64,000 nt of DNA from Candidatus Aminicenantes bacterium (GCA_963726335.1 CAVSCD010000015.1:203790-267789); one strand, 5' to 3'; shown: positions 11,789-50,825, numbered from the stretch's first letter. The notes: generated from the sequence alone by a model not told the origin. Made by a program: numbers and translations.

Positions 11789-11805
11789 AGGCTCAGCAGG
11801 TAAGC

Positions 11806-11835
11806 ATAATATTCGGCCCCGGGAGCGCCTGTCAA
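11806..11835 (-). promoter_or_regulatory. sigma70-like promoter candidate for the giant ATP-grasp cassette
   Basis: On the minus strand: TTGACA (11835..11830), 18-nt spacer, TATTAT (11811..11806). It lies about 20 nt upstream of the ATG at 11788. Confidence 0.4.
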
Positions 11836-12036
11836 TGAACAAAATTCTCAGGTTCTCCAAGATGAGATGGCCGTTGCGCCTGACGGGTCCTGTCACGGTT
11901 CTCCCCCGGCGCCCGAACGGTCTATCATGTTCACTGCTTATCAAGAAGTTTGCCGCATCAAACGTTCGGTCGGCGGGGGGCCCCCGAACCGCGCCACCCA
12001 TCGAGCGCAATCGAAAACGGTTCTGACGTGGGGCAG

Positions 12037-12067
12037 TTGAAAAAAATGGCCGCCTGGTATATATAAT
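12037..12067 (+). promoter_or_regulatory. sigma70-like promoter candidate for the RHH-sat-cysC unit
   Basis: TTGAAA at 12037..12042 is followed by a TATATATAAT block at 12058..12067. This gives TATATA at 17-nt spacing or TATAAT at 19 nt. The surrounding intergenic stretch is AT-rich. Confidence 0.4.
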
Positions 12068-12136
12068 GGTTTCATTTTGCATAACTTAAGCCCGCTGTCC
12101 CCGACCGGGGAGCCGGCCAGGATTAAAGGATTGATC

Positions 12137-16441: not shown

Positions 16442-17746
16442 ATGAAGATCGGAGTCATCGGCACAGGCTATGTCGGGCTCGTGACGGCGGCCGGGCTGGC
16501 CGAGCTGGGCCACCACGTGACCGGCACGGACAAGCTGGGGGACAAGATCGAAAAGATCTCCAGGGGAGCCATCCCGATCTACGAGCCGGGGCTCGACGAG
16601 CTCCTCGCCGCGAACGTCAAGCAGAACAGGCTATCCTTCAGCCCGGACCTCGACCGGACGATCCGGGAAGCCGACGTCATCTTCGTCTGCGTCGGCACGC
16701 CCCAACACCCCGACGGCAGCGCCGATATGTCCCAGATCGAGGAGGTTTCCCGGCTCATCGCCCGGAACCTCAACGACTACAAGGTCGTCGTCGAGAAGAG
16801 CACGGTCCCGGTGAAGACCTCCTTCTGGATCAAGCGCACGATCTCCCTCTACAAGAAAGCGAACATCGAGTTCGACATCGCTTCGAACCCCGAGTTCCTG
16901 CGCGAGGGTTCGGCGGTCGCCGATTTCCTGAACCCCGACCGGATCATCGTCGGCGTCGAAAGCGACAGGGCCCGCGACATCCTGTGCGGCATCTACGACC
17001 GCTTCAAGGAGCGGGTCGTGGTCACGAACATCGACACCGCCGAGCTGATCAAGCACGCCTCGAATTCGTTTCTCGCCCTCAAGATCTCCTACATCAACCT
17101 GATCGCGAACATCTGCGACAAGACCGAGGCCAACATCGAGCAGGTGGGCAAGGGCATGGGCCTCGACCCCCGCATCGGCGGCCGGTTCCTCAAGGCCGGG
17201 ATCGGCTACGGCGGCTCCTGTTTTCCCAAGGACATCAAGGCGCTGGTGAACATCGGCGAGGAGTTGGGCGTCGACATGAGCCTGCTCAAGGAAGCGGACC
17301 GGATCAACCTCGACCGGGGGCACGCCTTCATCGACAAGATCAAGGGGGCGCTCTGGATCCTCAAGGACAAGGAGATCGCCGTCCTGGGACTGGCCTTCAA
17401 GCCGGAGACGGATGACATCCGCGAGGCCCCGAGCCTCCGGATCGTCAGGGAGCTGCTGCGGGAAGGGGCCCGGCTGAGGCTCTACGACCCTCAGGCGGCC
17501 GGGAACTTCAAACATCAATTTCCCGAAGCGGCCGGGCGGGTCGCCTATCCGGCCTCGGTCTACCAGGCGGTGGAGAAGGCGAACGCCGCCCTCATCCTGA
17601 CCGAGTGGGAGGAGTTCGCCAAGCTCGACCTGGCGCGGGTGAAGCAGGCCATGGCCAACCCGATCATCGTCGACGGCCGGAACATCTTCGATCCCGAGAC
17701 GCTGAAAGGGCTCGGGTTCGAATACTATTCCATCGGCCGCAAATAA
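16442..17746 (+). CDS. ugd: UDP-glucose 6-dehydrogenase
   Basis: 434 aa with MKIGVIGTGYVGLVTAA and GYGGSCFPKD, full length. Confidence 0.9.
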   Translation: MKIGVIGTGYVGLVTAAGLAELGHHVTGTDKLGDKIEKISRGAIPIYEPGLDELLAANVKQNRLSFSPDLDRTIREADVIFVCVGTPQHPDGSADMSQIEEVSRLIARNLNDYKVVVEKSTVPVKTSFWIKRTISLYKKANIEFDIASNPEFLREGSAVADFLNPDRIIVGVESDRARDILCGIYDRFKERVVVTNIDTAELIKHASNSFLALKISYINLIANICDKTEANIEQVGKGMGLDPRIGGRFLKAGIGYGGSCFPKDIKALVNIGEELGVDMSLLKEADRINLDRGHAFIDKIKGALWILKDKEIAVLGLAFKPETDDIREAPSLRIVRELLREGARLRLYDPQAAGNFKHQFPEAAGRVAYPASVYQAVEKANAALILTEWEEFAKLDLARVKQAMANPIIVDGRNIFDPETLKGLGFEYYSIGRK

Positions 17747-17762
17747 GATCAGCGGCTCTGGC

Positions 17763-18060
17763 GAAGCCGAACAGCCGCCTTCGGCCTGATCGCCCATTCT
17801 GGTTCTTAATAGCGCGTCCTGTCCTCGGCGCGTCCTTCTCGGGTGCGTACCTCGCGCCTCAACCCGTGACAACGACGGTTAGCGTTGTTCCTATGGGAGA
17901 GGGGCTCCCCATGTCGCTCCGGGCGCAGTACAGACTGGCCGCCGCGCAACCCGGTACCCTCGAAGAGCACCTCGGAACAGCGCTGAACCCACAGGTCGCG
18001 CGCCGCCGAGCAGGCGGCTGTTCAGCTTCCCTATTCTACTCCTGCGGTCAGCTGGTTTTT
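17763..18060 (+). repeat. interspersed intergenic element, copy A1 (long closing helix, conserved core, T5 tail)
   Basis: Arms GAAGCCGAACAGCCGCCTTCGGC (17763..17785) and GCCGAGCAGGCGGCTGTTCAGCTTC (18005..18029) are complementary. The core shares the blocks CCCATTCtGGTTCTTAA, TGCGTAcCTCGCGC, CCCTCGAAG and CTGAACCCaCAGGTCGC with 22540..22829. It ends in GCTGGTTTTT (T5 at 18056..18060). Confidence 0.75.
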
Positions 18061-18064
18061 ATTT

Positions 18065-20129
18065 CTATGAATGGTTCTGGAAGTCCGTTTTCAGCGTGAT
18101 GAAATCGTCCTGCCGGACCCGCGACCATTGGTATGGGACCGTGACGCCGTCGCGGAGGACTTCAAGCTGAGTGCGGTCCGCGTCCGTCCCCGCGAGGCCG
18201 AACACGCTCCAGGGGATCAACATCTTGACCGTGCCCGGGCGCGGATCATTGCTGTTGAACCGGAAGACGATCTTGCTCTCGGACGCGTCCGGCTGATAAT
18301 CATAGGCGGCGAAAATGTCCGCGGCGGGAAAATAGAGGTGCACTTGGGCGGGGGCTTCGCCCAATTTTGGGGCCAGGTCGAGTCCGTTCTCCGATAGCCG
18401 GAGGCCGAAATAACCCTCGTAAAGCGCCCGGGCCAGGCTGCCGGCGCTGCCTCCGTAGTAATCGCTGCCGCGGCCCGACCCCTCGCGCGTGTCCCATTCG
18501 TAGAAGCCTCCGTTGGCGACGTCCTTCCTGATGATCTCCAGGAGTTTTTCCAGGGCGTCGCGGCTGAAACCGTTCTCGAACATGGCCAGGATCAGGCGGC
18601 CTCCGAACCAATCCCACTGTCCGCCGTTCTGGTATTCGTAAGGGCTGGTCCATCTGCGGATGCCTGAAGAACCCCGCGGGGTAGGGGGGGAGCATGGCGC
18701 CGCCGACCGTCGAGACGCCGAAGCGCGACTGCCTGGAGACTGCCTCGGCGATGATCTTTTGCGCCTGCCGCCCGTCCGCAAGTCCTGATATCGCGGCCTG
18801 GGCATTCCCGCCCATGGCGAACATGTCATCCTCGTCGAGATCGTGGCGCCAGTCGTCGAGGTGGATATGGACCCTAAAGAAGCCCCTGTCATCCTGCCAA
18901 AGATGGCGGTTCGTCGCGGCCTGAAGGTCCTTGGCTGTTTTTTCCCAGGAATCCGCCGCGGTGCCTCGTCCCAGCGAACGGAGCATCACGGCCATCTCGC
19001 GGCTGGCCTCGTAGGCCATGGCCTGATCGTAGATATCCGCCGTCCAGCGCGTTTTTCCGTCCACATAGATCGCCTGCTGGTCGGCGTCCTCGGAGTCCAC
19101 ATCGCCCCAGTCCGCCGTGTGGGCACCCGTCAGCAGACCATGGTCCGCGCTGAACCTCCGGGCGAACGGGAACCGCAGGGCCCGCTCCAGCCTGTCGATG
19201 ACCGGTTCTCCGGCGACCGGCTTCAGCAGCCAGTCCTTGCCCCTGTCGCCCTTGAGCACGAACGTCTGGAAAGCGGCCTGGACGGCGCTTGTCTCCTGGT
19301 CGGTTTCCACGGTGTTTTTATCGCTCCGGCCCCGCGGGTCGATCCAGTCCTCGAGCGCGCCGTCGGCTTTCTGGAAGGCGAGGTGCTCTTCGATCCATGA
19401 CGAGAGAAACGCTTCGGGGTAATAGTATCGCGAGGCCGGGATGATGGTCGCGGCGTCCCGGAGCCAGATCTGGGGGTAGCCGGCACCGGCGGCGAACCCG
19501 TCGATCTTCCCGGCCCTGCCGGCGAATTCGACCTCGTTGTGATGAAGCGTCAGGCGGATGAGCTTCCGGAGCGCCTCGAGCTCGGGCCTGGCCGAAAGGA
19601 AATTCGAATGGCGGCCGTAGTCAAGGCCGGGCGGGATCCCGTCCTCCGGCCAGGCGCGTTCGCCGCCGATAAGGGGGACCTCGACCGTCGCCCCTCCCTT
19701 GTCTTTGAACCAGAATTGGCCTTCGCGGAGCAGGTCGAATTCCACGCGGTATTCCCCGGCGGCGAGCGGCGCTTTGACGCGGACGCCGACCTCGGCGGTC
19801 TCCCCCGGACGGATAATCCCGGGAAGCTGAGTCCTCGGGTTGTCGAACCTCAGGACGCTTCCGTCCGCAGCCAGCAGATGGAAGGACACGAACGTCGGGT
19901 TCGGTCCCGACATAGTCCACTCCGACCGGCCCCGGTTCTTGATACGGAGCGTCACCTGTGCGGTTTCCCCGGCATACGCCCGGATCTCCCGGACATCGGC
20001 CTTGATGGCCGCCGAATATTCCTTGGCCTGTGAACAGGCCCCGGCCAGAACGATCAGGACGGTCGTCACGAGGGCAACCAGCCGGCATTCAGTTCCGGCG
20101 CGATCCAGGCGGGGGCGGGCCTTTCCCAT
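18065..20129 (-). CDS. secreted/lipoprotein-like six-hairpin glycoside-hydrolase-like protein with an N-terminal Ig-like domain; one frameshift as assembled
   Basis: N-terminal signal with LAGAC. Motifs GYPQIWLRDAA and, in the second ORF (18065..18892), YEYQNGGQWDWFGG are typical of (alpha/alpha)6 glucosidase/debranching-type folds. The frames switch somewhere in 18630..18690, a region that contains a G7 run at 18684..18690. Confidence 0.5.
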
Positions 20130-20135
20130 GGGCCC

Positions 20136-21122
20136 TCAGCAGATGCGGGGGAGAAGCTCGGAGGTCAAAGGCTCGAGGAGCCTCAGCCCGCCCGTGACCG
20201 TCGCCAGCAGCAGCTCTCCCGGCCGGCCGATGCGGTCGTCCACCCGGCCGATGACGGCCGCCCGCCTGCCTTGCGGGCTCCTGCGGATATCCCTCAAGAT
20301 CTTCTCGGCTCTGCCCGCGGGGACGGCGACGACCGCCCGGCCTTCGCAGGCGAGGAACAGGGGGTCGATGCCCAGGATCTCGGACGCTCCCCGCACGGTC
20401 CGGGAGAGCGGGATCTTGTCTTCTTCGATGACCAGCGGATGGGCGAGCCCTTCGGCGAGCTCGGAGAGGATGGTCGCCAGCCCGCCGCGGGTGATGTCCC
20501 GCATCCAGAGCGCTCCCGATTTCCAGATGGGCAGGAGATAATTAAGGGGCGCGCAGTCGCTCCGAACCCGTCCTTCGAGCCCGAACTCATGGCGGGCGAG
20601 CATCACGGCGAGGCTGTGTTCTCCGAGTGTCCCGGTGAGGATGATCCTGTCTCCGGGCCGGAGGCGGCCGGGCCGCGGGGTCGCGATGACCTTGCCGATG
20701 CCCGAGGTGTTGACGTAGAGTTTATCCGCCTGGCCCCGCCGGACGACCTTAGTGTCGCCGGTGACCACCTGGACGCCCGCCGCCCGCGCCGCCCGGCGCA
20801 CCGACCTCAAGACCCTGGACAGGTCGTCCCACGGCAGTCCCTCTTCGATGATCAGGCCGAGCGAGAGGTGCCGGGGTTCCGCGCCCGAGACGACGAGATC
20901 GTTGACCGTGCCGTTGACGGCCAGCGTTCCGATGTCCCCGCCCGGGAAAAAGATCGGGTCGACGACATAGCTGTCCGTGGTGAAAGCGATCCCCGAAGGA
21001 AGATGGCTGGCATCGCCCAGCCTCTCGAGGCAGCGATTCCTGAACGCCGGCACGATGTGGCGGGCGATGAAATCCCGCATCAGCTTGCCGCCGCTTCCGA
21101 GCTCCAGGCTAATCTTATCCAT
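20136..21122 (-). CDS. hypE: [NiFe]-hydrogenase maturation protein HypE
   Basis: Starts MDKISLELGSGGK and ends with the HypE C-terminal PRIC motif. The ATG at 21122 overlaps the hypD stop (ATGGATAA). Confidence 0.9.
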   Translation of the reverse strand: MDKISLELGSGGKLMRDFIARHIVPAFRNRCLERLGDASHLPSGIAFTTDSYVVDPIFFPGGDIGTLAVNGTVNDLVVSGAEPRHLSLGLIIEEGLPWDDLSRVLRSVRRAARAAGVQVVTGDTKVVRRGQADKLYVNTSGIGKVIATPRPGRLRPGDRIILTGTLGEHSLAVMLARHEFGLEGRVRSDCAPLNYLLPIWKSGALWMRDITRGGLATILSELAEGLAHPLVIEEDKIPLSRTVRGASEILGIDPLFLACEGRAVVAVPAGRAEKILRDIRRSPQGRRAAVIGRVDDRIGRPGELLLATVTGGLRLLEPLTSELLPRIC

Positions 21123-22221
21123 GCCCGCCCCGCCCATACTTGAAGTGAATGTAGCACGCGCCTTCGAACGATACCATGCACGGCCCGAACGGCGCATCCG
21201 GACGGCACTTCCCGGCGAACAGGCTGCAACGGGGAGGGGAGACGAGTCCCCTCAAGACCTCGCCGCAGCGGCAGCCGGGCAGGTCGCCGCTTCCGGGCTC
21301 GATGCGCAGGCCGTGCCTGACGCGGGCGTCGAACCGCCGGTAAGGCTCGCGGAGCTCCAGGCCGCTTTGAGGGATCATGCCCAAACCCCGCCAGCAGGCG
21401 TCCACCGGCGCGAGGATCCTGTCCATGGCGTCGAGCGCGCGGATGTTGCCGTCGGGGTCGACGGCCCTCCCGTATTCAAGGTGCACCCGGGGCTTTGCTT
21501 CCCGGAGCTGGTCGAGCACCGCGGAGATCCCGAGCAGGATGTCGTTCGGCTCGAAGCCGGCGACAGCGCCCGGCACGCCGTATTCCTCGGCGATGAACCG
21601 GTACGGCCGGGTGCCGATGATGGCGCTCACATGCCCGGGGTAAAGGAAGCCGTTGACCGTGGTCTCCCCGGCGTCGAGGATCCACCGGAGCGCGGGCGGG
21701 ATGAGCCAGAGCGCCGCCAGCACCGAGAAATTCTCCAAACCCTCGTTCCTCGCCTTCTCCACGGTCAGGGCGATCCCGGGGATCGTCGTCTCGAACCCGA
21801 CGCCGAAGAAAACGACGTCCTTGCCCGGTTCGGCCCGGGCGATCTCGACCGATTCCTCGGGCGAGTAGACGAGCTTGAGGCGGGAGGAGGGAGCGGGCAC
21901 CGCCGTCTGCAGGGAGCCTTTCCGGGTGGGGACGCGCGTCATGTCCCCGAAGGAGGTCAGGATGAGGTTTTCCTTCCCGGTCAGGAGATCCAGGCAGGCC
22001 TCGTGGACTTCATTGGGAGTGATGCAGACCGGGCAACCGGGCCCGGAAACCATGTCCACGCCCGCCTCGTCGAGAAGCGGCTTGAGCCCGTACCGGTGGA
22101 TGGTCATGGTGTGGGTGCCGCAGACTTCCATCAGCCGGACGCTCCGGCCCAAGGCCCGGACTTTCCCTTCGATATCCCGGACGAGCGCCCGGGTCACCGT
22201 CTTGTCCCGGAGCTCTTTCAT
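21115..22221 (-). CDS. hypD: [NiFe]-hydrogenase maturation protein HypD
   Basis: 368 aa with CGTHT and GPGCPVC motifs. Confidence 0.9.
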   Translation of the reverse strand: MKELRDKTVTRALVRDIEGKVRALGRSVRLMEVCGTHTMTIHRYGLKPLLDEAGVDMVSGPGCPVCITPNEVHEACLDLLTGKENLILTSFGDMTRVPTRKGSLQTAVPAPSSRLKLVYSPEESVEIARAEPGKDVVFFGVGFETTIPGIALTVEKARNEGLENFSVLAALWLIPPALRWILDAGETTVNGFLYPGHVSAIIGTRPYRFIAEEYGVPGAVAGFEPNDILLGISAVLDQLREAKPRVHLEYGRAVDPDGNIRALDAMDRILAPVDACWRGLGMIPQSGLELREPYRRFDARVRHGLRIEPGSGDLPGCRCGEVLRGLVSPPRCSLFAGKCRPDAPFGPCMVSFEGACYIHFKYGRGGHG

Positions 22222-22235
22222 CGGTCGGGCGCCCT

Positions 22236-22463
22236 CTATTCTCCCTGAGCTTCGGTGATCTCCCGGAGCAGGGCGAGGGTCTCTTGGGCCTCTTCTTCAT
22301 TCAGCCTGGAGATGGCGAACCCGGCATGGACGATCACCCAGTCGCCCAGCCGGACGTTCTCGAGCAGGGAGAAATTGACCCGGACTTTGGTGCCGAGGTA
22401 GTCGACTTTGCCCGTGCCCTCGGGAGTGACTTGGATGACCTTCGCCGGTATGCCTAAACACAT
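22236..22463 (-). CDS. hypC: [NiFe]-hydrogenase maturation chaperone HypC/HupF
   Basis: 75 aa beginning MCLGIPAKV, the conserved N-terminal Cys2 motif. Confidence 0.9.
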   Translation of the reverse strand: MCLGIPAKVIQVTPEGTGKVDYLGTKVRVNFSLLENVRLGDWVIVHAGFAISRLNEEEAQETLALLREITEAQGE

Positions 22464-22539
22464 GATGGGATCGTCGTCCTTTCGTCACTCTATCCTACCA
22501 AATCGCCCTCCCCCCGTCCACCTTGGGCTGCCGAGATCA

Positions 22540-22829
22540 GGGGGAATGGGCTGCCACCCCGCGGCCTCGGCTCCCATTCGGGTTCTTAACGCCGTTTCCG
22601 TCAACGCCCTTCTCGGCGGCTGCGTAACTCGCGCGTCAGATCGCACTCGCGCACAACGAGAATTCTCTTTTTTCCCCAGTGGGGTTTCCGTTTTATCGTT
22701 GCGAGCTCAATACATACTCGCCGCCCGAAACCCGGGGTCCCCTCGAAGGACATTTCGGAAAGGCTGAACCCTCAAGGTCGCCGAGGCCGGGGGTGGCAGC
22801 CCATACCCCCTTGCACGGGCTGGTTTTTT
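22540..22829 (+). repeat. interspersed intergenic element, copy A2 (best-defined copy)
   Basis: Arms GGGGGAATGGGCTGCCACCCCGCGGCCTCGGC (22540..22571) and GCCGAGGCCGGGGGTGGCAGCCCATACCCCC (22780..22810) are complementary. A second hairpin, CAGCCC (22797..22802) / GGGCTG (22817..22822), is followed by T6 (22824..22829). Confidence 0.8.
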
Positions 22830-22856
22830 GACTTATTCAGGGGTGGCTTCTATAAT
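22828..22856 (+). promoter_or_regulatory. near-consensus sigma70 promoter of uppS; predicts a leaderless mRNA
   Basis: TTGACT (22828..22833), 17-nt spacer, TATAAT (22851..22856). The uppS ATG is at 22863, 7 nt after the -10 box, with no Shine-Dalgarno sequence in between. Confidence 0.6.
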
Positions 22857-22862
22857 GACGTA

Positions 22863-23648
22863 ATGCCGATCGATCTCGAGGGTTTTGTCTCCCCGGGCAG
22901 CGAAGAAGAGGCGCTTCTCCGCCAGGTCGACTTCTCCGTTCTCCCCAAACATGTCGCCGTCATCATGGACGGGAACGGACGCTGGGCCGAACGGCGGCAC
23001 ATGCCCCGGATCGAGGGCCATCGTGCCGCGTCCAAGGCGGTTCAGGATACCGTCGAATCCTGCGCCCGGCTCGGCGTCGAGTACCTGACGCTTTTTGCCT
23101 TCTCGAAGGAGAACTGGAAGCGGCCGAAAACCGAGGTTTCTCTGCTCTGGAAGCTCCTCGAGGAATATCTCCGGAGAGAATATAAAGAGTTGATAAAGAA
23201 TAGGTTCCGGTTGAAAGTGATCGGTCAGCGGGAGGCCATTCCGCAATCCACCGAACGCGAGCTCCGCCGGGTCGAAGGCCTGACCGCCGGGTTCGACCGT
23301 TTGACCGTCGTTTTGGCGCTCAACTACGGCGGCCGGGCCGAGATCGTCGACGCGGTCAAGAAGATCCTCCAAGAGGGAGGGACCGGTCCCGAAGGGCTCG
23401 ATGAAACCGCCTTTTCGAAGTACCTTTACACCGCCGCCATCCCCGACCCCGACCTCCTCATCCGGACGAGCGGCGAGCGTCGCGTCTCTAACTTCCTCCT
23501 CTGGCAGATCGCCTATGCGGAGATCTGGATCACGCCCGTCCTGTGGCCGGATTTCCGGCGCAAGCATTTTCTCGAGGCCCTGGTCGATTATCAGAAGAGA
23601 GAAAGGAGGTTCGGCGCCGTTCATGCCCAGCCGCCGGAGAACTCTTAG
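22863..23648 (+). CDS. uppS: undecaprenyl-diphosphate synthase (isoprenyl transferase)
   Basis: HVAVIMDGNGRWA and the ERRVSNFLLWQIAYAE motif. Confidence 0.9.
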   Translation: MPIDLEGFVSPGSEEEALLRQVDFSVLPKHVAVIMDGNGRWAERRHMPRIEGHRAASKAVQDTVESCARLGVEYLTLFAFSKENWKRPKTEVSLLWKLLEEYLRREYKELIKNRFRLKVIGQREAIPQSTERELRRVEGLTAGFDRLTVVLALNYGGRAEIVDAVKKILQEGGTGPEGLDETAFSKYLYTAAIPDPDLLIRTSGERRVSNFLLWQIAYAEIWITPVLWPDFRRKHFLEALVDYQKRERRFGAVHAQPPENS

Positions 23649-23684
23649 TCCCCGGGCCATCTTACGGCGGCGCCTGCGCCCGAA

Positions 23685-24488
23685 ATGAAAAAACGAGTCC
23701 CCACGGCTATAGTGCTCATCGGCCTCTTCTTCCTGCTCATCCAGTACGGCTCCAGGACGGTGATGTTCGTGGTCTTGCAGGCCGTCATCCTGGCGGCGCT
23801 TTTCGAGTTCTACGCGCTGGCCGAAAAAAAAGGGCTCCACCCCCGGTCCTATCTCGGCGCCGTGCTGTCGGTCCTCCTCGGTCTGGCGTTTTTCCGGCAG
23901 GATGCCGTGCCGCTCGGCCTGGCCGTTTTCGCCGTCATTTTTCTCACCGGAGTTTACTACCTGTTCACCTTCAGGCGCGTGGAGCAGCTGCCGTATTTCA
24001 GCCAATCCATCGCCGTCACCTTTTTCGGCGTTCTCTACCTGAGCTTCACCCTCAACCATATCTTCCTCCTGAGGTTTGAACGGGGGGCGTATTTTGTCTA
24101 TTTCCTGTGCGCCGTCATCCTTCTCGGCGACACGGGAGCGTACTGGATCGGCGCGCTCCTGGGCCGTCACAAGATGGCGCCGCTCGCCAGTCCGAATAAA
24201 ACCTGGGAGGGTTGCGCCGGAGGGATCCTGTTCGGTGTGCTGGGCGCCTGGGCCGCCTGGGCCCTGATGTTCAGGGACGTCAATCTCTGGCTGGCGCTCG
24301 GCACCGGGGCGGTCGTCCACGCCGTCGCCCAGATGAGCGACCCTCTGGAATCCCTTTTCAAGCGGGCCGTCGGGGTCAAGGACTCGTCCAACATCCTGCC
24401 CGGCCACGGAGGGTTCCTGGACCGGTTTGACAGCTTCCTCCTGGCCGGCCCGTTCTTCTATTATTTGCTCCGATACTTCTGGAAATGA
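23685..24488 (+). CDS. cdsA: phosphatidate cytidylyltransferase
   Basis: 267-aa polytopic membrane protein with the C-terminal SxxKRxxxxKD..xxxPGHGGxxDRxD signature (FKRAVGVKDSSNILPGHGGFLDRFDS). Confidence 0.85.
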   Translation: MKKRVPTAIVLIGLFFLLIQYGSRTVMFVVLQAVILAALFEFYALAEKKGLHPRSYLGAVLSVLLGLAFFRQDAVPLGLAVFAVIFLTGVYYLFTFRRVEQLPYFSQSIAVTFFGVLYLSFTLNHIFLLRFERGAYFVYFLCAVILLGDTGAYWIGALLGRHKMAPLASPNKTWEGCAGGILFGVLGAWAAWALMFRDVNLWLALGTGAVVHAVAQMSDPLESLFKRAVGVKDSSNILPGHGGFLDRFDSFLLAGPFFYYLLRYFWK

Positions 24489-25642
24489 AGACGCTGGCGG
24501 TCCTCGGGTCCACGGGTTCGATCGGCGTGAACACGCTCGAGCTGGCGGACAGGCTCCGGGAGAGGTTCCGAGTCGTCGGGCTCGCCGCCGGCACGAACAC
24601 GTCTCTGCTCGCCGACCAGATGAGAAGGTTCAACCCCGAGATCGTTTCCGTCCAGACCCGGGAAGCCGCCGAAACCCTGCGGCAGCGCCTGCCCGGTTTC
24701 GCCGGCCGCATCCTCTTCGGCCCGGAAGGCGCCGAGGAAGTCGCCGGCTCCCCGGATAACGACATTGTCGTCTCCGCCATCACCGGGATCGACGGGTTGC
24801 GGCCGACCCTCGCCGCCGTCCGCGCGGGCGGGCGGGTCGCCCTGGCCAACAAGGAATCGCTGGTCGTCGCCGGCGCGCTGCTCCAGGCCGAGGCGTCATC
24901 GAGCGGGGCCGAGATCATCCCGGTTGACAGCGAGCACAGCGGCGTCTTCCAGTGCCTGGCCAAGGAGCCGAGGGCGGGCGTCCGCCGTGTCATCCTGACC
25001 GCCTCGGGCGGGCCGTTCTTCAGGACGCCGGTCTCGGAGATCGGGGCGAAAACGGTTGAAGAGGCGCTGCGGCACCCGCGGTGGAAGATGGGAAAGAAAG
25101 TGACCATCGACTCGGCGACCCTGATGAACAAGGGGTTCGAGCTCATCGAGGCCCGCTGGCTGTTCGGGCTGGCGCCCGCCGAGCTGGGCGTGCTGATCCA
25201 TCCCCAGAGCATCGTCCATTCACTGGTCGAGATGCGCGACGGCTCGGTGCTGGCCCAGCTGAGCGTCACCGACATGAAGATCCCGATCCAGTTCGCCCTG
25301 ACCTATCCCGAGAGGGAAGCCGGCCCGTTGCCGCCCCTCGACCTGGGACGGGTCCGGGAGCTTGAATTCTACGAAGTGGATGAGGGCCGCTACCCGCTGA
25401 TGCGCCTCGCCCGGCTGGCCCTGGATACCGACCGGTCACTGCCGGTGGCCCTGAACGCCGCCAACGAAGTCGCCGTCGCGGGCTTTCTCGGCGGCCGCCT
25501 GCCGTTCTCCGGGATCGTCGAGGCGGTCAGCCGGGCCATGGAAGGGCATCGCGTCGTCGATGTCCGAAGTCTGGAAGATATCAGCCAGGTCGACCGGGAG
25601 GTCCGGGCGCAGACCAGCCAATTCATCGCGGAAAGGGTGTAA
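24485..25642 (+). CDS. dxr: 1-deoxy-D-xylulose-5-phosphate reductoisomerase
   Basis: LGSTGSIG NADPH motif, LANKESLV, full length. ATGA overlap with cdsA. Confidence 0.9.
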   Translation: MKTLAVLGSTGSIGVNTLELADRLRERFRVVGLAAGTNTSLLADQMRRFNPEIVSVQTREAAETLRQRLPGFAGRILFGPEGAEEVAGSPDNDIVVSAITGIDGLRPTLAAVRAGGRVALANKESLVVAGALLQAEASSSGAEIIPVDSEHSGVFQCLAKEPRAGVRRVILTASGGPFFRTPVSEIGAKTVEEALRHPRWKMGKKVTIDSATLMNKGFELIEARWLFGLAPAELGVLIHPQSIVHSLVEMRDGSVLAQLSVTDMKIPIQFALTYPEREAGPLPPLDLGRVRELEFYEVDEGRYPLMRLARLALDTDRSLPVALNAANEVAVAGFLGGRLPFSGIVEAVSRAMEGHRVVDVRSLEDISQVDREVRAQTSQFIAERV

Positions 25643-25643
25643 T

Positions 25644-26985
25644 ATGGGAAATCTCCTCGGCACGCTGCTGGCCTTTTTCATCGTCTTCGGGATCCTCGTC
25701 TTCATCCACGAGTTCGGGCACTTTTTCACGGCCAAGCTTGTGGGCATCCGCGTCGAGACATTCTCCTTCGGCTACGGCAAGCGTTTGTTCGGCATCCGCG
25801 GGAAGGAGACCGATTATCGGATCAGCCTGATCCCGATGGGAGGCTACGTCAAGTTCCTGGGCGAGGGCGAGCTGTCCGCCGAGGGCGGTCAAGCCGGCTC
25901 TCCCGGCCGACCATTTCCTGGCCAAGACGCGCTGGCAGCGCTTCCTGGTGATGGTCATGGGCTCGGTGATGAACCTCATCCTGGCCGTGGTCCTCATCGC
26001 CATCGTCGGGATGGTGGGTGTGACCGTGCCGGGCTACCAGGAGGAGACGCCGGTCATCGGCTGGATCGAACCGGGCTCGCCCGCCGAGAGGTCCGGGTTC
26101 AATCTCGGGGACGCGATCCTGAGCGTCGACGGCGAGAAGGTCGCGACCTGGGGAGACGTCGAGATGGCCGTCGGCACGAAGCCCGACCGGGACGTCTTCG
26201 TGGAGGTCCGGCGAGGCGGCGAGACGCTGCGGATCGGCATGCGGACCGAAAAGAAGACCCGCTACGCGCTGGGCTACGCCGGGTTCACGGGCGTCATCCT
26301 CACCCAGGTCAGGATGGTGAAGCCGGGCTCGGCGGCGGAAAAGGCCGGCCTGGAAACCGGGGACATCATCCGGGCCATCGACGGGAAGCCCGTCACCTTC
26401 TACGAGTTCGTCCAGGTGATCGAGAAGAACCCGGACCGGCCGCTCACGCTCGAGGTCGAGAGGCAGGGCCGACCGCTTTCCCTGACGGCCACGCCCCGCC
26501 TCGAAGGCAGCGTCGGCCGGATCGGCATCTACCAGGAGCCGCAAACGGTCATGAGAAAGTACGGATTTTTCGCGGCTTTTGGGCAGAGCCTTAAAGAAAA
26601 CGCCAAGAATACGTTCCTGATCATCCGGTTCATCAAGGACCTGTTCGTGGGGCGGGCCTCGACGCAACAGCTCGGCGGCCCCATTGACATCGCGAACTTC
26701 TCCTACGCCGCCCTGAAGATGGGTTTCCTGGCCATGCTGGGCTGGATCGGGCTGATCAGCCTCCAGCTCGGCGTCATCAACCTCTTTCCCATCCCGGTCT
26801 TTGACGGCGGCCAGATCTTCGTGCTGGCCGTCGAGGCCATCATCCGGCGGGACCTGGGCCCCAAGGTCCGCCAGGTCTGGATGCAGATCGGGTTCGTCAT
26901 CTTCGTGCTGCTCATCGTCTTTGTCATCCTGAACGATATCATCAAGAGGCTGCCGGCCGGCTGGCAGAGCCTCGTTCCATGGTAA
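25644..26985 (+). CDS. rseP: RIP site-2 zinc metalloprotease RseP; one frameshift as assembled
   Basis: HEFGHF at the N-terminus (ORF 25560.., real ATG at 25644). The PDZ region and the C-terminal LNLFPIPVFDGG motif lie in ORF 25948..26985. The second frame is already readable from about 25891 (KPALPADHFLAKTRWQRFLV), which places the shift near 25883..25890. Confidence 0.85.
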
Positions 26986-26997
26986 TATAGCTTCGTC

Positions 26998-28089
26998 ATG
27001 AGCTCTTCCTTCCCCCGCCGGACGACCAAGCCGATCCTGGTCGGGGGAGTGCAGGTCGGGGGCGGGGCGCCGGTGGTCGTGCAGTCCATGACCAAGACGC
27101 CCACGCATGACGCCGCGGCGACGGTCGCCCAGATCAGGCGTCTGCAGAAGGCGGGTTGCGAGATCGTACGGCTGGCTGTGCCCGACCGGAGGGCGGCCGA
27201 AGCCCTGCCCGGGATCAAGAAGCGTGTCTCCGTACCCCTCATCGCCGACATCCATTTCGACCACAGGCTCGCCCTGGCCGCGCTGCTGGCCGGGGTGGAC
27301 GGTTTGCGTCTGAACCCGGGGACGATCGGCCCGAGGGAAGGGGTCCGCCGGGTGGTCGCCGCCGCCAGGGAACGGGGAGTACCCATCCGCATCGGCATCA
27401 ACTCGGGCTCGCTCGAGAAACGCCTCCTGGCCCGCTACGGCGGCGCGACGGCCGAAGCGATGGCGGAAAGCGCCCTGGGCCACATCCGGCTCCTCGAAGA
27501 CCTCGGTTTCGACCTCATCAAGGTCTCGCTCAAGGCGTCGGATGTCGCCCGCACCGTGGAGGCCCACCGGATCCTGGCGGGGAAAGTCCCGTATCCCTTT
27601 CATCTCGGGATCACCGAAGCCGGTAACCTGGAAAGCGGCGTGATCAAGTCCTCGGTGGGCCTGGGCATCCTGCTCGGCGAAGGCCTGGGCGATACGATCC
27701 GTGTCTCCCTGACCGCGCCGCCCGAGGACGAGGTGCGCGTCGCCTACTCGATTCTCCGGAGCCTGGGCCTCAGGTCGCGGGGAGTCAATCTGGTCACCTG
27801 TCCGACCTGCGGCCGGGTCGAGGTCGACATGATGAGATACGCCGCCGCGGTTTCGAGAGGGCTCCAGTCGATCGAGGTCCCGCTCACCGTGGCCTTGATG
27901 GGCTGCGCGGTCAACGGCCCGGGAGAGGCCCGGGAAGCCGATGTCGGCATCGCCTGCGGCAGGGGAGCCGGGACCCTGTTCAGGAAAGGAAAGCTGGTGC
28001 GGCGGGTCGAGGCCGGACGGATCGTGGCCGAGCTTGTCGCCGAAGCGAAAAAGCTGGCCGCGGAAAGATCGAAAGTCCAAGGAATATGA
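26998..28089 (+). CDS. ispG: 4-hydroxy-3-methylbut-2-en-1-yl diphosphate synthase
   Basis: 363 aa, GcpE family. Carries the C-terminal CPTCGR ... GCAVNGPGE cluster motifs. Confidence 0.9.
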   Translation: MSSSFPRRTTKPILVGGVQVGGGAPVVVQSMTKTPTHDAAATVAQIRRLQKAGCEIVRLAVPDRRAAEALPGIKKRVSVPLIADIHFDHRLALAALLAGVDGLRLNPGTIGPREGVRRVVAAARERGVPIRIGINSGSLEKRLLARYGGATAEAMAESALGHIRLLEDLGFDLIKVSLKASDVARTVEAHRILAGKVPYPFHLGITEAGNLESGVIKSSVGLGILLGEGLGDTIRVSLTAPPEDEVRVAYSILRSLGLRSRGVNLVTCPTCGRVEVDMMRYAAAVSRGLQSIEVPLTVALMGCAVNGPGEAREADVGIACGRGAGTLFRKGKLVRRVEAGRIVAELVAEAKKLAAERSKVQGI

Positions 28090-28092
28090 ACA

Positions 28093-29042
28093 ATGGCTCA
28101 AGATAGCCCCGTACCCAAAGCCGTGCTGGTCAAGCTCGAAAGGCTGCAGGAGATCCTCCGCGGGATGAAGAAGACGCTCGTCGCCTTTTCCGGGGGAGTG
28201 GACAGCACCCTGCTCCTCAAGGTGGCGCTTGACGTTCTGGGCCGGGAGGCGTTCGCGGTCATCGCCGGCTCCGAAACCTATCCGGAGCGGGAAGTCCGCG
28301 CAGCCCGCGCGCTCGCCCGGCGGCTGGGCGCCCAAGCCGCGGTCATCCGGACACGGGAGATCGACAACCCGGCCTTTTACGAGAACTCTCCCAGGCGCTG
28401 TTATCACTGCAAGCTCGAGCTCTTTTCGCTCCTCAGGAAGATGGCCGACGAGCGCGGCATCCCGTACGTGCTCGACGGCTCGAACGCCGATGACCGGAGC
28501 GACTACCGCCCGGGTCGGAGGCCGGCCGGGAGCTCGAAGTCCGCTCACCCCTCCAGGAAGCGGGCCTGACCAAGGCGGACATCCGGGTCCTCTCCAGGAT
28601 GTACGGCCTTCCCACCTGGAACAAGCCCTCCATGGCCTGCCTGGCCTCAAGGTTCCCTTATCACGTTCCGATCGAGCGCGCCAACCTCGTCCGGGTGGCC
28701 AAGGCCGAGGACGCCCTGCGGCAGCTCGGGTTCGTTCAGTTGCGCGTCCGGCACCACGGCGACATCGCCCGGATCGAGGTCACGGCCGAAGACATCCCCA
28801 AGCTCCTGGCCGGACCGGTCAGGCGGAAGATCGCGACCCGGTTCAAGAAGCTGGGATATATCTACGTGACCCTCGACCTCGAGGGCTACCGCACCGGCAG
28901 CCTCAACGAACCCCTGAAGAAGGGTCGCCGCCCCAAAAGCCTGACAGCCCCGAACGCTGCCGACGGGTTTCTTCGATTGCGGAGAGATCAGCCGTCGGAT
29001 GGCCGCAGCGACCATGAGAGGTGTTTAGCCATCGCGAAATGA
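28093..29042 (+). CDS. PP-loop ATP pyrophosphatase of the LarE/TIGR00268 family (sulfur-transferase-like); one frameshift, and a 3' tail that runs into a repeat element
   Basis: SGGVDS PP-loop in ORF 28093..28569. The continuation RELEVRSPLQEAGLTKADIRVLSRMYGLPTWNKPSMACLASRF ... GYRTGSLNE lies in the frame of ORF 28599..29042. The shift is near 28518..28530. Conserved sequence ends at about 28910; the remaining codons and the stop lie inside repeat copy A3. Confidence 0.7.
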
Positions 29043-29262
29043 CCTCTCGACGGGAACCCGCGTTCCGGGCGGCGAGTATGTATTGAGCTCAACGCGGCAA
29101 ACGGATACGCACCGAAAAGCAAAGAGAATCAAAATCAGCCGAGGTGATCTGGAACGCGAGGTTAGCAGCCGCCGAGAAGGGCGTTTCGCGAGCGGCGTTA
29201 AAAACCCGAACGGGCGCCGGGCCGCCGATGGCTGATCTCTCTGGGGCATCTAGCCCATTCCT
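28935..29262 (-). repeat. interspersed intergenic element, copy A3 (reverse orientation)
   Basis: The reverse complement shares identical blocks CGCCCTTCTCGGCGGCTGC and GAGCTCAATACATACTCGCCGCCCG with copy A2. It has its own closing helix: forward 28981..29006 GGAGAGATCAGCCGTCGGATGGCCGC pairs with 29221..29241 GCCGCCGATGGCTGATCTCTC. Confidence 0.75.
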
Positions 29263-29291
29263 ACTGGCGCAATTGGATAGTGGACGGATTC

Positions 29292-30263
29292 CTAATTCAC
29301 CAGATTGTCGGGGCGCTCGCCGCGCAATCCCTGGATGAGGTTCCGCGCCGCCGCCATGGCCATCGCCAGGCGCGTCCCGCGGGTGGCGCTGCCGATATGG
29401 GGGAGGAGGACGACATTGTCGAGAGCCGTCAGCCGTGGCTCGATCTCGGGCTCCCTCTCATAGACGTCCAGGCCCGCGGCCCCGAGCCTTCCGCTCTCCA
29501 GGGCGTCGGCCAGGGCGGCCTCGTCGACGATCGGACCCCGGGCGACGTTGACGAGAAGAGCGTCGCGCTTCATCAGGCTCAGCTTTTGCGCCGACAGGAG
29601 ATGCGTTGTCTGGGGGTTCAGCACGGCGTGGACGGTGACGATATCGGCCGTTTGGAGAAGCTCGTCGAGGGGCAGCCAGGTCGATCGCAGGCCCGCCTCG
29701 GACTCGGCCGGAAGCCGGTGCGGATCGTGGTAGACGATTTCCATCCCGAACCCGGAGGCGCGCCGGGCGACGGCCTGCCCGATCCTCCCGAACCCGATAA
29801 TGCCCAAACGCTTGCCGTAGATATCCATTCCCAGGAAAAGGTCGAGCTCCCAGCCGAGGAACTTTCCCTCCCGGGTGAACCGGTCGGCCTGCGGGATCTT
29901 CCGGGCGGCGGCCAGGATAAGGGCCCACGTGAGATCGGCGGTCGCCTCGGTCAAAACGCCCGGAGTGTTGCTGACCAAGATACCCCGCTCTCGGGCTGCT
30001 TGGAGGTCGATGTTGTCGACGCCAACGGCGCAGTTGGCGATCATCCGGAGCTTGGGCGCGGCGTCGATGATCTCCCGGTCGATCCGGTCGACAAGAAGCG
30101 TGAGCAGCCCCTCCTTGTCCGAGATCCTTTCTTTGAGGTGCTCCCGTGCATACCCTCGGGGGTCCGTGCCGCCTTCGACCTCGGCCTGCGACGTCAGATA
30201 GGCCATGGCTTCCGGCAACAACCTCCGGGTCACCAGGACTTTGGGACTCATCTCAATCGCCAT
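29292..30263 (-). CDS. D-isomer-specific 2-hydroxyacid dehydrogenase (glyoxylate/hydroxypyruvate reductase-like)
   Basis: GIIGFGRIGQAVARRA NAD motif, and the catalytic R/E/H context (VARGPIVDE, LPHIGSAT). Confidence 0.85.
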   Translation of the reverse strand: MAIEMSPKVLVTRRLLPEAMAYLTSQAEVEGGTDPRGYAREHLKERISDKEGLLTLLVDRIDREIIDAAPKLRMIANCAVGVDNIDLQAARERGILVSNTPGVLTEATADLTWALILAAARKIPQADRFTREGKFLGWELDLFLGMDIYGKRLGIIGFGRIGQAVARRASGFGMEIVYHDPHRLPAESEAGLRSTWLPLDELLQTADIVTVHAVLNPQTTHLLSAQKLSLMKRDALLVNVARGPIVDEAALADALESGRLGAAGLDVYEREPEIEPRLTALDNVVLLPHIGSATRGTRLAMAMAAARNLIQGLRGERPDNLVN

Positions 30264-37719: not shown

Positions 37720-37777
37720 GGTTTAAGTAAACCTATATTAGCGAAATATGTCAATCAGCCATCGACCCGGATAAGCA

Positions 37778-38075
37778 CCTCCTTTCGTGTGAAGACGCAG
37801 TTCATCAAAGGGGTCCTGTCATGGCGCGTCCCTGTGCGTCCTCGCGCCTGCCGATATGAGCTCGAATTGTCTTTGGTATCACCCCTTGGTCCCCCGGTGA
37901 GCTGATAGTCAGAAGCTTTTTAGGATATTTCGCAGAATAGCGGCTCCGAGTCACTCCTCCGCTATTCTGATGGTCGCTCCGAAGACTGCGCTTCCCGCCG
38001 GTCCCCGTCGCTCCGGGCGCGCAGGGACTGGCGCCATGCCACCCCGCCATGCCTTCCTAGGGGCATGCAAGACCA
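37778..38075 (+). repeat. interspersed intergenic element, copy B1 (variant subfamily, long form)
   Basis: Shares TCAAAGGGGTCCTGTCATGGCGC, TCCCTGTGCGTCCTCGCGCCT, GGTCCCCGTCGCTCCGGGCGCGCAGGGA and TGGCGCCATGCCACCCC with 40676..40860. Internal long-range helix 37820..37838 / 38018..38038. Carries an extra ~110-nt insert with a perfect hairpin, CAGAATAGCGG (37933..37943) / CCGCTATTCTG (37959..37969). Confidence 0.75.
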
Positions 38076-40616: not shown

Positions 40617-40675
40617 CCGGCCTAGAATTAACACACAACCCAAATGCGGTCAATCGGAGCGAGCCTGCGGTCCGC

Positions 40676-40860
40676 ATCACTTTTCGCGTGCTGACGTTGT
40701 TCCTCAAAGGGGTCCTGTCATGGCGCATCCCTGTGCGTCCTCGCGCCTCACCCGTCAACGATATGTTCGCGCCCTCCAAGGGGAGAGGGGTCCCCGTCGC
40801 TCCGGGCGCGCAGGGATTGGCGCCATGCCACCCCCCATGCCTCCTCAGGATTGCACGAAA
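40676..40860 (+). repeat. interspersed intergenic element, copy B2 (variant subfamily, short form)
   Basis: See copy B1. Internal helix 40719..40737 / 40807..40827. It also shares GTGCGTcCTCGCGCCTCA, GGGAGAGGGG and GTCGCTCCGGGCGC with copy A1, which links the two subfamilies. Confidence 0.75.
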
Positions 40861-40979
40861 CGAAATGTTCCCGAACCTGCGCCACCCACCGTGTGCCTTC
40901 GCGCGCTTGAGTTGATATAAGGAAAAGGGGGCGCTTCGGATTGACCAAAAGGGAGCAGAGGCTATAAGATGGGCCGGAA

Positions 40980-49532: not shown

Positions 49533-49607
49533 GCCCCTGTAGCTCAGTATGGATAGAGCAATGGATTCCTAATCCATGTGTCGCCTGTTCGAGTCAGGCC
49601 AGGGGCA
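49533..49607 (+). tRNA. tRNA-Arg (anticodon CCT)
   Basis: Hand-folded cloverleaf: acceptor GCCCCTG/CAGGGGC, D stem GCTC/GAGC, anticodon stem ATGGA/TCCAT with loop TTCCTAA, T stem GCCTG/CAGGC with loop TTCGAGT, discriminator A. 75 nt, and CCA is not encoded. Confidence 0.9.
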
Positions 49608-49617
49608 CTCTTTCTTG

Positions 49618-50801
49618 TCAATGAATCGGGAGCCTGGGCGCCTGAGACAATAGCTCCGATGTGATCTTGAGCACGCGCTCCTCGATCGATAGAGGCTCTT
49701 TCCGGGAAAGTTCTTCAAGCCATTGGTCCTTGCAGGAGCACTCCACCGGCTCCAGTTTCTTCAGGTCAAAATGAGAACAGTACTGATTCAGGATCAGGTC
49801 CGTGACCTGAGGGCTGCATCGATCGCAGTTATGCGGGACCTCTTTGACGTCCGCGATATATCGGAAAGGGCTGATGAATGGTTTCGCATAGGGCGTCACC
49901 TGCCTCAGTATTTCGAGGATGCTCCATAGCCAGGGTGTCCGGTAATATCCCCTTTTGTGAAGCTCGTGGATCAGCGTGTCTTCCTGGATGGTCATGGCTT
50001 CGTAATGGATATCATCGATCCCCAGGTCGTGCAGATACTTCACCGTCGACACGGCATCAGTCGATGGCTTCCCGCTCGTTGAGAAAGGGCGGCTTGATCA
50101 GCACGTAAATCCGCTGGATGATCCCGAGGGAGGGACCTGACGCGACGTATTCTTCAAAAGCCTGTCGACTGAGGCCTTTATGGATGCAGACCTCACGAAC
50201 GGTATCGTTGCTGCTTTCCAGTCCGGTGCTGATGACCAGTTCTTTGTCCGGAACCAGGCTTCTGAGCCGCCTCACTTTTTCCTTTGGACACGTATTCCAG
50301 CCGGCTTTCGAGGACGATCTGCTTCAAGGTCTCCGACCGGGAGAGCATGGCAAAGATCGCTTCCAAGGCTTCGAACGGGACCTCCTCGTCATTCAGAACC
50401 GAGCCGGCGTTATAAAAACATAAGATGGGATACTGGCTCAGATCGATCTTCGAGGACGCCCGCTTGAACTGCTCGATAAAATCCGGTACCCCGATGACTT
50501 CGTGAAACTGTGATGTTTCGTTCCAGAATCCGCACATCGCGCAGCCGCCGGTCTTCTTCCAACTGCAGCCGTTGGAGCGGAAGTGAATGACCAATCTCGG
50601 GACCGGGCGGCCGCCCAGATGTCCGATCCGATAATCGATTTTAGCGGGTTCATCCGGCCGGAAAGCCTTCTGCGGAGACCTTCGGTTGAGGTCCTTTAGA
50701 ACTTTCTGCAATTGCCAAATGGCTGTCGAGGCATTGGACCGTTCTCTTAATATTTTCCATTTCTTGCTCCCGTAACGGCCGGTCAATAATGAAAGCGACA
50801 T
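49618..50801 (-). CDS. radical SAM enzyme of the TIGR01210/COG1244 (RaSEA-like) family; two frameshifts as assembled
   Basis: Three consecutive ORF fragments (50193..50801, 50057..50275, 49618..50052) read as one protein. The sequence runs SNGCSWKKTGGCAMCG cluster motif, then IVLESRLEYV..., VISTGLESSNDTVRE, YVLIKPPFLNEREAID, then DAVSTVKYLHDLGIDD. The shifts are at the T5 run 50276..50280 and near 50053..50058, where an extra base creates an in-frame TGA. Confidence 0.65.
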
Positions 50802-50825
50802 CGTCTTCTCGATCTGCTCGGGTTC

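Follow-up and report, generated by a model that had tools for sequence, protein, structure and literature searches.

Intergenic foldback repeats of Candidatus Aminicenantes with copy-specific closing stems are probably descendants of miniature inverted-repeat transposable elements

When the copies of an intergenic element each keep a paired closing stem while the sequence of the two arms changes from copy to copy, is the stem maintained as RNA, or can repeat DNA itself keep its arms matched? This question is raised by a non-coding element, copy A2, in the spacer upstream of uppS in a stretch of 64,000 nucleotides (the window) from Candidatus Aminicenantes bacterium (GCA_963726335.1 CAVSCD010000015.1:203790-267789). 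Two further copies, A1 and A3, lie nearby (Table 1). A first-pass annotation, made from the sequence of the window, had argued that the terminus of a MITE (miniature inverted-repeat transposable element) should be conserved in sequence, and that arms which change but stay complementary indicate a selected RNA or single-stranded DNA helix. Our analysis leads to a different answer. The A copies are likely to be a foldback repeat family that descends from MITEs and in which both arms and copies recombine with and convert one another. That the stems match is most likely a result of such repeat-DNA dynamics and not the mark of a new regulatory RNA. The host assignment agrees with protein similarity: a dehydrogenase is 89% identical to that of Aminicenantes bacterium RBG_16_63_16, whose contig (L061) is syntenic with the window. 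L-numbers denote loci in other genomes and metagenomes that were compared with the window.

Homology of the three copies was confirmed. By blastn, A2 and A3 are 76% identical over 233 nt (E=6.5e-33), and A1 and A2 are 68% identical over 234 nt (E=1.2e-10). An nhmmer profile built from the alignment of A1-A3 found exactly three places in the window (E=5.6e-71 to 4.6e-83), and the blocks that the annotation had listed as shared between copies were all present where it had placed them. Its count of five family members has to be divided: three are A copies, but the other two belong to a related foldback family, B. The elements measure 270-330 nt and have no conserved open reading frame (ORF), as expected of a short non-coding MITE. 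A coding function was rejected, since the GC content by codon position is flat (0.59/0.60/0.59) and gives no coding signal, Pfam has no match for the ORF overlapping the element, and indels between copies break the frame.

RNAalifold applied to 12 diverse copies pairs a conserved 5' block with a conserved 3' block. We counted pairs of this rod on a MAFFT alignment of 32 distinct copies, using the 35 pairs predicted independently in single-sequence folds of the A-type and of the MITE-type elements described below. A standard pair is formed in 84% of the cells, and double-sided changes are found in 13 of the 35 pairs. The covariation score of the rod is 0.131, compared with 0.070 in shuffles (none of 500 was as high) and at most 0.068 when the partners were slid by 1-3 columns. 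The first part of the annotation's argument, that pairing is conserved while sequence changes, is thus borne out by both-sided changes and by covariation above both controls. Because the two blocks pair with covariation, the whole element is a long imperfect hairpin, in which the outer arms are followed by the block-block rod with its conserved bulges and then by a variable apical centre. In relatives the centre is the site of large insertions, deletions and nested modules (L014, L067, L035, L053, L008, L032, L022).

A closing stem was found in every copy. Fold energies are -140.6 kcal/mol for A2, -133.7 for A1 and -141.6 for A3, with a long terminal stem in each, and the z-scores against dinucleotide shuffles are -6.2, -2.9 and -4.8, respectively. 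The arms alone form duplexes of -81.3 kcal/mol in A2 (37 pairs), -51.7 in A3 and -46.4 in A1. In a local scoring that covers A1 and A2, cognate arms score 16 and 26, respectively, the arms of non-orthologous copies 4-12 and shuffled arms about 6; the stem of A3 rests on its fold and arm duplex. The window copies thus keep near-perfect stems of 23-37 bp at a mutual identity of 68-76%; in one copy, L017, the stem is broken. A long stem particular to each copy is therefore real, as had been proposed, but the arms are not unrelated to one another. They have diverged from one consensus, roughly GATCAGCCGCC..CGGCC. Within A2, GAATGGGCTG of the 5' arm resembles the inner part of the terminal inverted repeat (TIR) of the MITE-type relatives, GTGTGGGCTG, and CAGCCCATAC of the 3' arm resembles their 3' TIR, CAGCCCACAC.

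Relatives were sought with the pattern GGTTYTTAA..CCTTCTCGG..CTCGCG, taken from the most conserved part of the element and scanned against genomes and metagenomes. True loci accounted for 7 of 12 matches in genomes and for all 47 matches in metagenomes. About 55 relatives were recovered, all apparently from Aminicenantes, and the majority form a tight subfamily of 326-bp elements. These carry conserved terminal inverted repeats of ~50 bp that begin with GGTTCTCTTCCATTTGGTGTGGG at both ends at more than 25 loci. Target-site duplications of 8 bp, rich in A and T, border them; among 29 distinct TIR pairs the duplication is perfect in 11 and has one mismatch in 6. By their sequence, the 326-bp relatives are textbook MITEs. 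Their host is again Aminicenantes, since the TldD protein of one such contig has its named best matches there. Two metagenome-assembled genomes among the sources, CAZSMW01 and CAZKEW01 (L001-L011), are titled 'uncultured Eubacteriales bacterium'; the best matches of their proteins are to Aminicenantes/Acidobacteriota, and the record names look like misassignments.

A smaller set of relatives (L044, L051, L055, L061, L063 and L067) is TIR-less and of the same A-type as the window copies. The link between the two types is provided by L033 and L037, which have the outer TIR and, inside it, arms of the form ..GAGATCAAG..CGGTC that are homologous to the A-type arms ..GAGATCAGCC..CGGCC. The arms of the window copies, being homologous to arms of TIR-bearing relatives, are therefore diverged parts of the element, and neither target DNA nor unrelated sequence. 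Because they have no conserved termini and no clear target duplication, we class the window copies as diverged, probably immobile descendants of MITEs and not as active ones. At 68-76% mutual identity they are older copies, and, lacking the outermost TIR bases and a clear target duplication, they are probably no longer transposed.

The same TIR also bounds other interiors, in elements that are 305, 423 or ~70 bp long, with mosaics among them. As regards TIR recognition, the core is thus cargo. In a lower-GC Aminicenantes lineage, other MITEs with this TIR (GGTTCTCTT..GTGTGGG) have the different interiors of 305 and 423 bp, and the ~70-bp TIR-TIR elements hold almost nothing between their ends. 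Mosaics of the other-cargo MITEs with the core family were seen in L008, L015, L035 and L053. Several loci were considered as a possible full-length autonomous element. L008 and L009 match the 5' block only; no transposase-like ORF follows, and they are truncated or mosaic. L027 3932-8639 and L046 8804 were rejected likewise. No similarity to the element was found in the plasmid collection or in viral contigs.

Orthologous loci show how these elements come, go and change. The A3 site is empty in L068, where a neighbouring protein is 85% identical and window positions 28923-29307 are replaced by 80 nt; it is degenerate in L069. In L070 (91% identical protein) the element at this locus is inverted, with the flank aligning to the minus strand of the window and the element to the plus strand. 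An element with the same arms occupies the A1 site in L063, L061 and L067, and in L066 this site is empty. Such insertion polymorphism at orthologous sites is what a MITE is expected to show. L063 and the window are close, with 95% identity at third codon positions of the neighbouring gene. The core at the A1 locus of L063 is 84.5-86% identical to A2 and about 81% identical to its own ortholog A1, and we conclude that the core was exchanged between copies. At the A2 site, the hypC-uppS spacer holds an element of the different family B in L061 and in L066. Ongoing change at orthologous loci therefore includes core swaps between copies, arm-arm inversion, and insertion and deletion in the centre.

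The occupied and empty sites also bear on the origin of the arms. We considered that a core might have entered a pre-existing target hairpin, such as a terminator, since four genomes have identical arms around differing cores at the A1 locus. This was rejected because the empty sites in L066 and L068 do not have those arms, and because the arms of different copies have diverged from one consensus and are homologous to those of the TIR-bearing relatives.

Could the core nevertheless be a functional structured RNA, such as a small RNA or a cis-acting element of an mRNA, whose helices are maintained by selection on the transcript and which travels as a MITE passenger in some lineages? Several observations speak for it. 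The covariation of the rod is real and the folds are stable, the blocks and bulges are strongly conserved between subfamilies while the arms and centre vary, the arms at the A1 locus are conserved across genomes, and the MITE-type TIRs carry other cargo too, so that the core is not needed for TIR recognition. A transcript under selection should tolerate G·U and not A·C. In the rod we counted 20 G·U cells versus 41 A·C cells, the pairs with any G·U numbering 15 and those with any A·C 14, and in the full stems of 22 MITE copies 87 G·U versus 162 A·C. The A·C excess is largely inherited and the per-pair counts are even, and on neither count is there an excess of G·U. The orientation of the element relative to genes is near random by crude gene calls at loci of which some are related: the upstream neighbour is co-oriented in 31 cases and opposed in 20, and the downstream neighbour in 23 and 20, respectively. 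Thus the G·U excess and consistent orientation expected of a strand-specific RNA were not found, though covariation is present, and at the A3 locus both orientations occur. It also counts against this explanation that bacterial structured RNAs do not typically have perfect stems of 25-37 bp.

Expression signals and database searches pointed the same way. No promoter or terminator was called at the borders of the elements; among terminator-like sites, none was called around A1 or A2, and one weak site around A3 is at chance level. As the annotation had suggested, the element belongs to no named RNA family that we could find: Rfam cmscan at the gathering score gave nothing in the window but a tRNA elsewhere, no match was obtained at E<=5 in 17600-29400, and six loci with relatives gave none, so a known RNA family was rejected. 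A further point concerns the rate of change. For the pair A3/L017, identity amounts to 84-90% within the element and to 86-97% at third codon positions, so that the element diverges at about the synonymous rate. L017 is not a clean ortholog of A3, because its 5' part comes from another copy, by recombination or as an assembly chimera, and it was left out of the analysis of arm evolution. Taken with the inverted copy and the wobble and orientation counts, this makes a structured RNA an unlikely account of the core.

Conversion between arms offers a direct way to matched stems. The two TIRs of the MITE-type elements differ at a two-base site (CCA versus ACG). This difference is flipped in 2 of 22 copies and homogenised in 6 of 22, with both ends reading ACG, CCA or GCG. 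A simultaneous change of two bases, in either direction, shows conversion between the inverted arms, and such conversion yields 'compensatory' pairs without any RNA. The wobble, orientation, orthologous-locus and arm-conversion results together favour dynamics of repeat DNA. The annotation was therefore right that the covarying pairing is real, but its step from copy-specific arms to a selected RNA or single-stranded DNA helix and away from a MITE was not supported, given the MITE relatives, the absence of a wobble or orientation bias, the inversion and the arm conversion.

A pairing that is symmetric in its use of G·T and A·C is also compatible with a hairpin that acts as folded single-stranded DNA, the substrate of a structure-recognising recombinase or HUH transposase as in REPIN/RAYT systems, IS200/IS605 ends or attC sites. 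Pairing kept while arm sequence varies, the missing target duplication of the window copies and a GGGCT-like motif near both junctions of A1-A3 would fit such a substrate. The TIRs and 8-bp duplications of close relatives are, in contrast, the signature of a DDE transposase and not of an HUH transposase or tyrosine recombinase. The neighbourhoods examined showed no integrase, no RAYT and no Y1 transposase, and a size of 270-330 nt with a conserved core is unlike REP or attC. We regard this explanation as quite improbable. The junction motif itself, GGGCT(G), lies in direct orientation at 22525-22530 and 22817-22822 of A2 and at 29256-29251 and about 28947-28942 of A3; a weaker GCGGCT/GCGGTC motif flanks A1 at 17754-17759 and about 18044-18055. 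The two GGGCTG copies of A2 sit exactly where homology with relatives stops and restarts. The motif could be a decayed target duplication, a target preference or a part of the element.

A number of points count against a descent from MITEs. At the A1 locus, three genomes with ~20% divergence at synonymous sites share the 3' arm without a difference over 17-19 nt, and the spacer next to this arm cannot be aligned across them. In both the 5' and the 3' block, sequence is conserved beyond what the upkeep of a hairpin requires, and the asymmetric bulges are retained from one subfamily to another, a hint of RNA structure or of a protein that recognises the sequence. No match to the MITE-type TIR was found in the window, where the copies are without the outermost ~11-15 bases, and A1-A3 have no adjacent or clear target duplication. 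Neither the loci of relatives nor the examined parts of the window yielded an autonomous element or a transposase that shares the TIR. In addition, the samples behind the wobble and orientation counts were small and made up of partly related copies.

These observations could be joined in another way, with the 5'-block/3'-block rod as the functional module itself, in the form of a structured RNA or a protein-bound DNA hairpin. The rod would then be held at fixed intergenic sites in Aminicenantes and exchanged like a cassette between locus-specific stems, and an ISL3-like MITE would have captured it as cargo in one lineage. If this were true, the covariation, the conserved bulges and the A1-locus arms would reflect selection at the level of the host. 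Because the divergence of the A3/L017 pair is about synonymous and L017 is recombinant or chimeric, we keep such a functional RNA or DNA module as a minority explanation with a small share of the probability.

For the MITE-derived family that we prefer, the following course of events may be proposed. Both arms of an element would go back to one palindromic ancestor. The MITE-type elements would have been moved in trans by a DDE transposase, and their TIR and duplication length resemble those of ISL3 or IS6 elements. The arms would be kept matched by arm-to-arm gene conversion, or by selection for formation of a hairpin or cruciform at the DNA level; a strand-specific RNA fold would be a less likely cause of their complementarity. 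If genes nearby are affected at all, this would follow incidentally from the presence of a large hairpin between them.

One specific regulatory role had been proposed for A2. The annotation had noticed that GGGCTG at 22548-22553 and again at 22817-22822 can each pair with CAGCCC at 22797-22802, the second copy being followed by a T6 run, and had suggested a possible switch, since the closing helix and a terminator-like hairpin would exclude each other. These coordinates are exact, but a riboswitch-like switch of this kind is hardly credible. The T6 run (22824-22829) overlaps the -35 hexamer of the uppS promoter, which is kept in L061 (TTGACA..TATAAT) and in L066 beside a different element, and no terminator was called there. 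The alternative 6-bp hairpin has an energy of -10.2 kcal/mol, and forcing it shifts the fold from -140.6 to -116.5 kcal/mol, a cost of ~24 kcal/mol. The motif is not conserved in A1, A3 or the relatives. The uppS transcript does not include the element, which is upstream of the promoter, and the competing intrinsic terminator in a 5' leader that defines a riboswitch or attenuator was not found. The promoter, of the sigma-70 type and close to consensus, ends six bases before the start codon of uppS (22863), an arrangement also kept in L061 and L066, which implies a leaderless or nearly leaderless mRNA.

Table 1. Coordinates of the A copies, of the parts of A2 and of associated elements (window positions unless a locus is named)
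Feature	Position	Strand	Remarks
Copy A1	17763..18029	+	arms 17763-17785 and 18005-18029; blastn, nhmmer, fold, arm duplex
Copy A2	22540..22810	+	non-coding, homologous to A1 and A3
Copy A3	28981..29243	-	arms 29243-29221 and 29006-28981; nhmmer, fold, arm duplex
A2 left junction	22525..22539	+	GGGCTGCCGAGATCA; flank homology with L061 stops just before
A2 5' arm	22540..22571	+	GGGGGAATGGGCTGCCACCCCGCGGCCTCGGC; pairs with 22780-22810 in the minimum-free-energy fold
A2 conserved 5' block	22572..22635	+	CCCATTCGGGTTCTTAACGCC..CCCTTCTCGGCGGCTGCGTAACTCGCGCG; highest conservation across subfamilies; pairs with 3' block, covarying
A2 variable centre	22636..22702	+	apical part of the foldback; poorly conserved
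A2 conserved 3' block	22703..22779	+	GAGCTCAATACATACTCGCCGCCCG..CCCCTCGAAGG..GGCTGAACCCTCAAGGTC; conserved across subfamilies; pairs with 5' block
A2 3' arm	22780..22810	+	GCCGAGGCCGGGGGTGGCAGCCCATACCCCC; fold and arm duplex
A2 right junction	22811..22823	+	TTGCACGGGCTGG; flank homology of relatives restarts at the promoter T-run
uppS host promoter, TTGACT-17-TATAAT	22828..22856	+	11/12 consensus positions; outside the element
Family B copy 1	37775..38054 (about)		ychF/lepB divergent spacer; blastn to B elements of L061 and L066 and to copy 2
Family B copy 2	40660..40900 (about)		upstream of recD2; 77% over 112 nt with the centre of A1
Family B elsewhere	L061 16140-16385; L066 6620-6750; L044 12062-12257		
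Module 'C'	L065 11306-11480; L067 3393-3550; L014 154-305; L044 10134-10402; L069 3965-4010		
MITEs sharing the TIR	L027 2203-2507, 3932-4229; L039 11682-12104; L048 147-218; L053 8390-8458		other or almost no interior

The genes around the copies were set by codon-position GC and Pfam, and several long minus-strand ORFs near the copies proved by codon-position GC to be shadows of real plus-strand genes. A1 lies between a UDP-glucose dehydrogenase gene (16442-17746, plus strand) and a convergent gene on the minus strand. A2 occupies the divergent spacer between hypC (start about 22463, minus strand) and uppS on the plus strand. A3 has a 2-hydroxyacid dehydrogenase gene (29292-30263, minus strand) on one side and a plus-strand gene ending at 29042 on the other. 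The latter belongs to an NAD-synthase/PP-loop-like gene that is present in the window as two plus-strand ORFs, 28093-28569 and 28599-29042 (158 and 147 aa), and as one 283-aa gene in L068 and L069. The second ORF overruns the C-terminus of its relatives by ~35 codons, into the A3 flank and 3' arm. The split could be a frameshift or pseudogene, or a gene end altered by the insertion.

Elements of this kind are dense, at roughly one per 6-20 kb in the Aminicenantes contigs examined, and they belong to several related families. Family B has the core GGGGTCCTGTCATGGCGC.TCCCTGTGCGTCCTCGCGCC ... GTCGCTCCGGGCGCGCAGGGA.TGGCGCCATGCCACCCC and occupies divergent promoter regions, namely those of ychF/lepB and hypC/uppS and the one upstream of recD2; here, too, the centre varies. 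The part of A1 that resembles family B by blastn is its centre, 17816-17926. A module 'C', itself a foldback, begins with GGGCTCGGACCGGGTCACTCGAGGGCACGCCACGATTTCC; it stands alone at the A1 locus in L065, but in L067 and L014 it is nested in the apical centre of an A-type or MITE-type element, so that one repeat of this kind sits inside another.

Two other regions of the window were recorded. A tRNA gene (49533-49607) is followed by three minus-strand genes (49618-52166) whose third-position GC is 0.64-0.69, compared with 0.8-0.9 elsewhere; two have no Pfam match, one has a weak AMP-binding match, and no integrase was seen. From its composition this may be a foreign segment beside the tRNA. 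The ~1.7 kb of 10032-11718 contain no ORF with the usual codon-position GC of the genome and are spanned by a 758-aa minus-strand ORF (9806-12082).

The case holds a caution for the discovery of new RNAs. Inverted-repeat DNA that recombines or converts its own arms can mimic compensated stems and can pass simple covariation tests. We found no literature on such repeats in Aminicenantes, and as far as the searched literature shows this is the first description of foldback repeats in this uncultured phylum, where families A and B, the nested 'C' module and TIR-sharing MITEs with other cargo occur together. The repeats lie beside promoters and the ends of genes, lengthen one reading frame or more, and undergo inversion and exchange of cores. 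Practical effects are therefore likely, among them assembly breaks, chimeric contigs and local differences in expression between strains.

Among known systems, REP/BIME/REPIN sequences are likewise intergenic palindromic repeats that are long-lived and evolve as populations of copies, and their hairpins can be insertion targets. REP units are only 20-40 nt and REPINs about 70-110 nt long, they lack TIRs and target duplications, and their genomes carry a RAYT gene; the window family, with its size and its conserved core of 200 nt, does not fit this pattern. Integron attC sites share a conserved structure with varying sequence and act as folded single-stranded DNA. They differ in being 57-141 bp long, in having no conserved internal core, in standing in one orientation in cassette arrays beside an integrase, and in their R and L boxes.

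The MITE-type relatives lead toward the ISL3 and IS6 families. The TIRs of these families start with GG(C/T)TCT, like GGTTCTCTT; a literature search for the TIR string of IS31831 found nothing. ISL3 (and IS6) elements make 8-bp target duplications, and IS31831, of the ISL3 family, prefers A/T-rich targets (PMC1590026), which the AT-rich duplications of the MITE-type relatives fit. No transposase gene with these TIRs turned up as a partner, and the assignment is a lead only.

A long stem-loop is the typical fold of MITEs, and the hairpin of bcr1, from the Bacillus cereus group, is preserved by compensatory base-pair changes, although some copies are no longer stable (PMC3184786). This element, of ~155 bp with 5-bp direct repeats and transcribed, is MITE-like, as is the family described here with its covariation and its broken-stem copy L017; phylum, size, sequence and length of the target duplication differ. 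By description, the closest kind are the hairpin MITEs: Chunjie of Geobacter, Nezha of cyanobacteria, Correia/CREE of Neisseria, ERIC of enterobacteria and RUP of pneumococcus. Unlike these, the window copies have lost conserved termini and target duplication, and the best conserved part of their family is the internal core, not the termini. In the other respects the likeness is close. Both are small, non-coding, intergenic and multi-copy, form a long stem-loop, vary in presence between related genomes and occur in mosaic or nested forms, and the relatives of the window copies have TIRs and target duplications as well.

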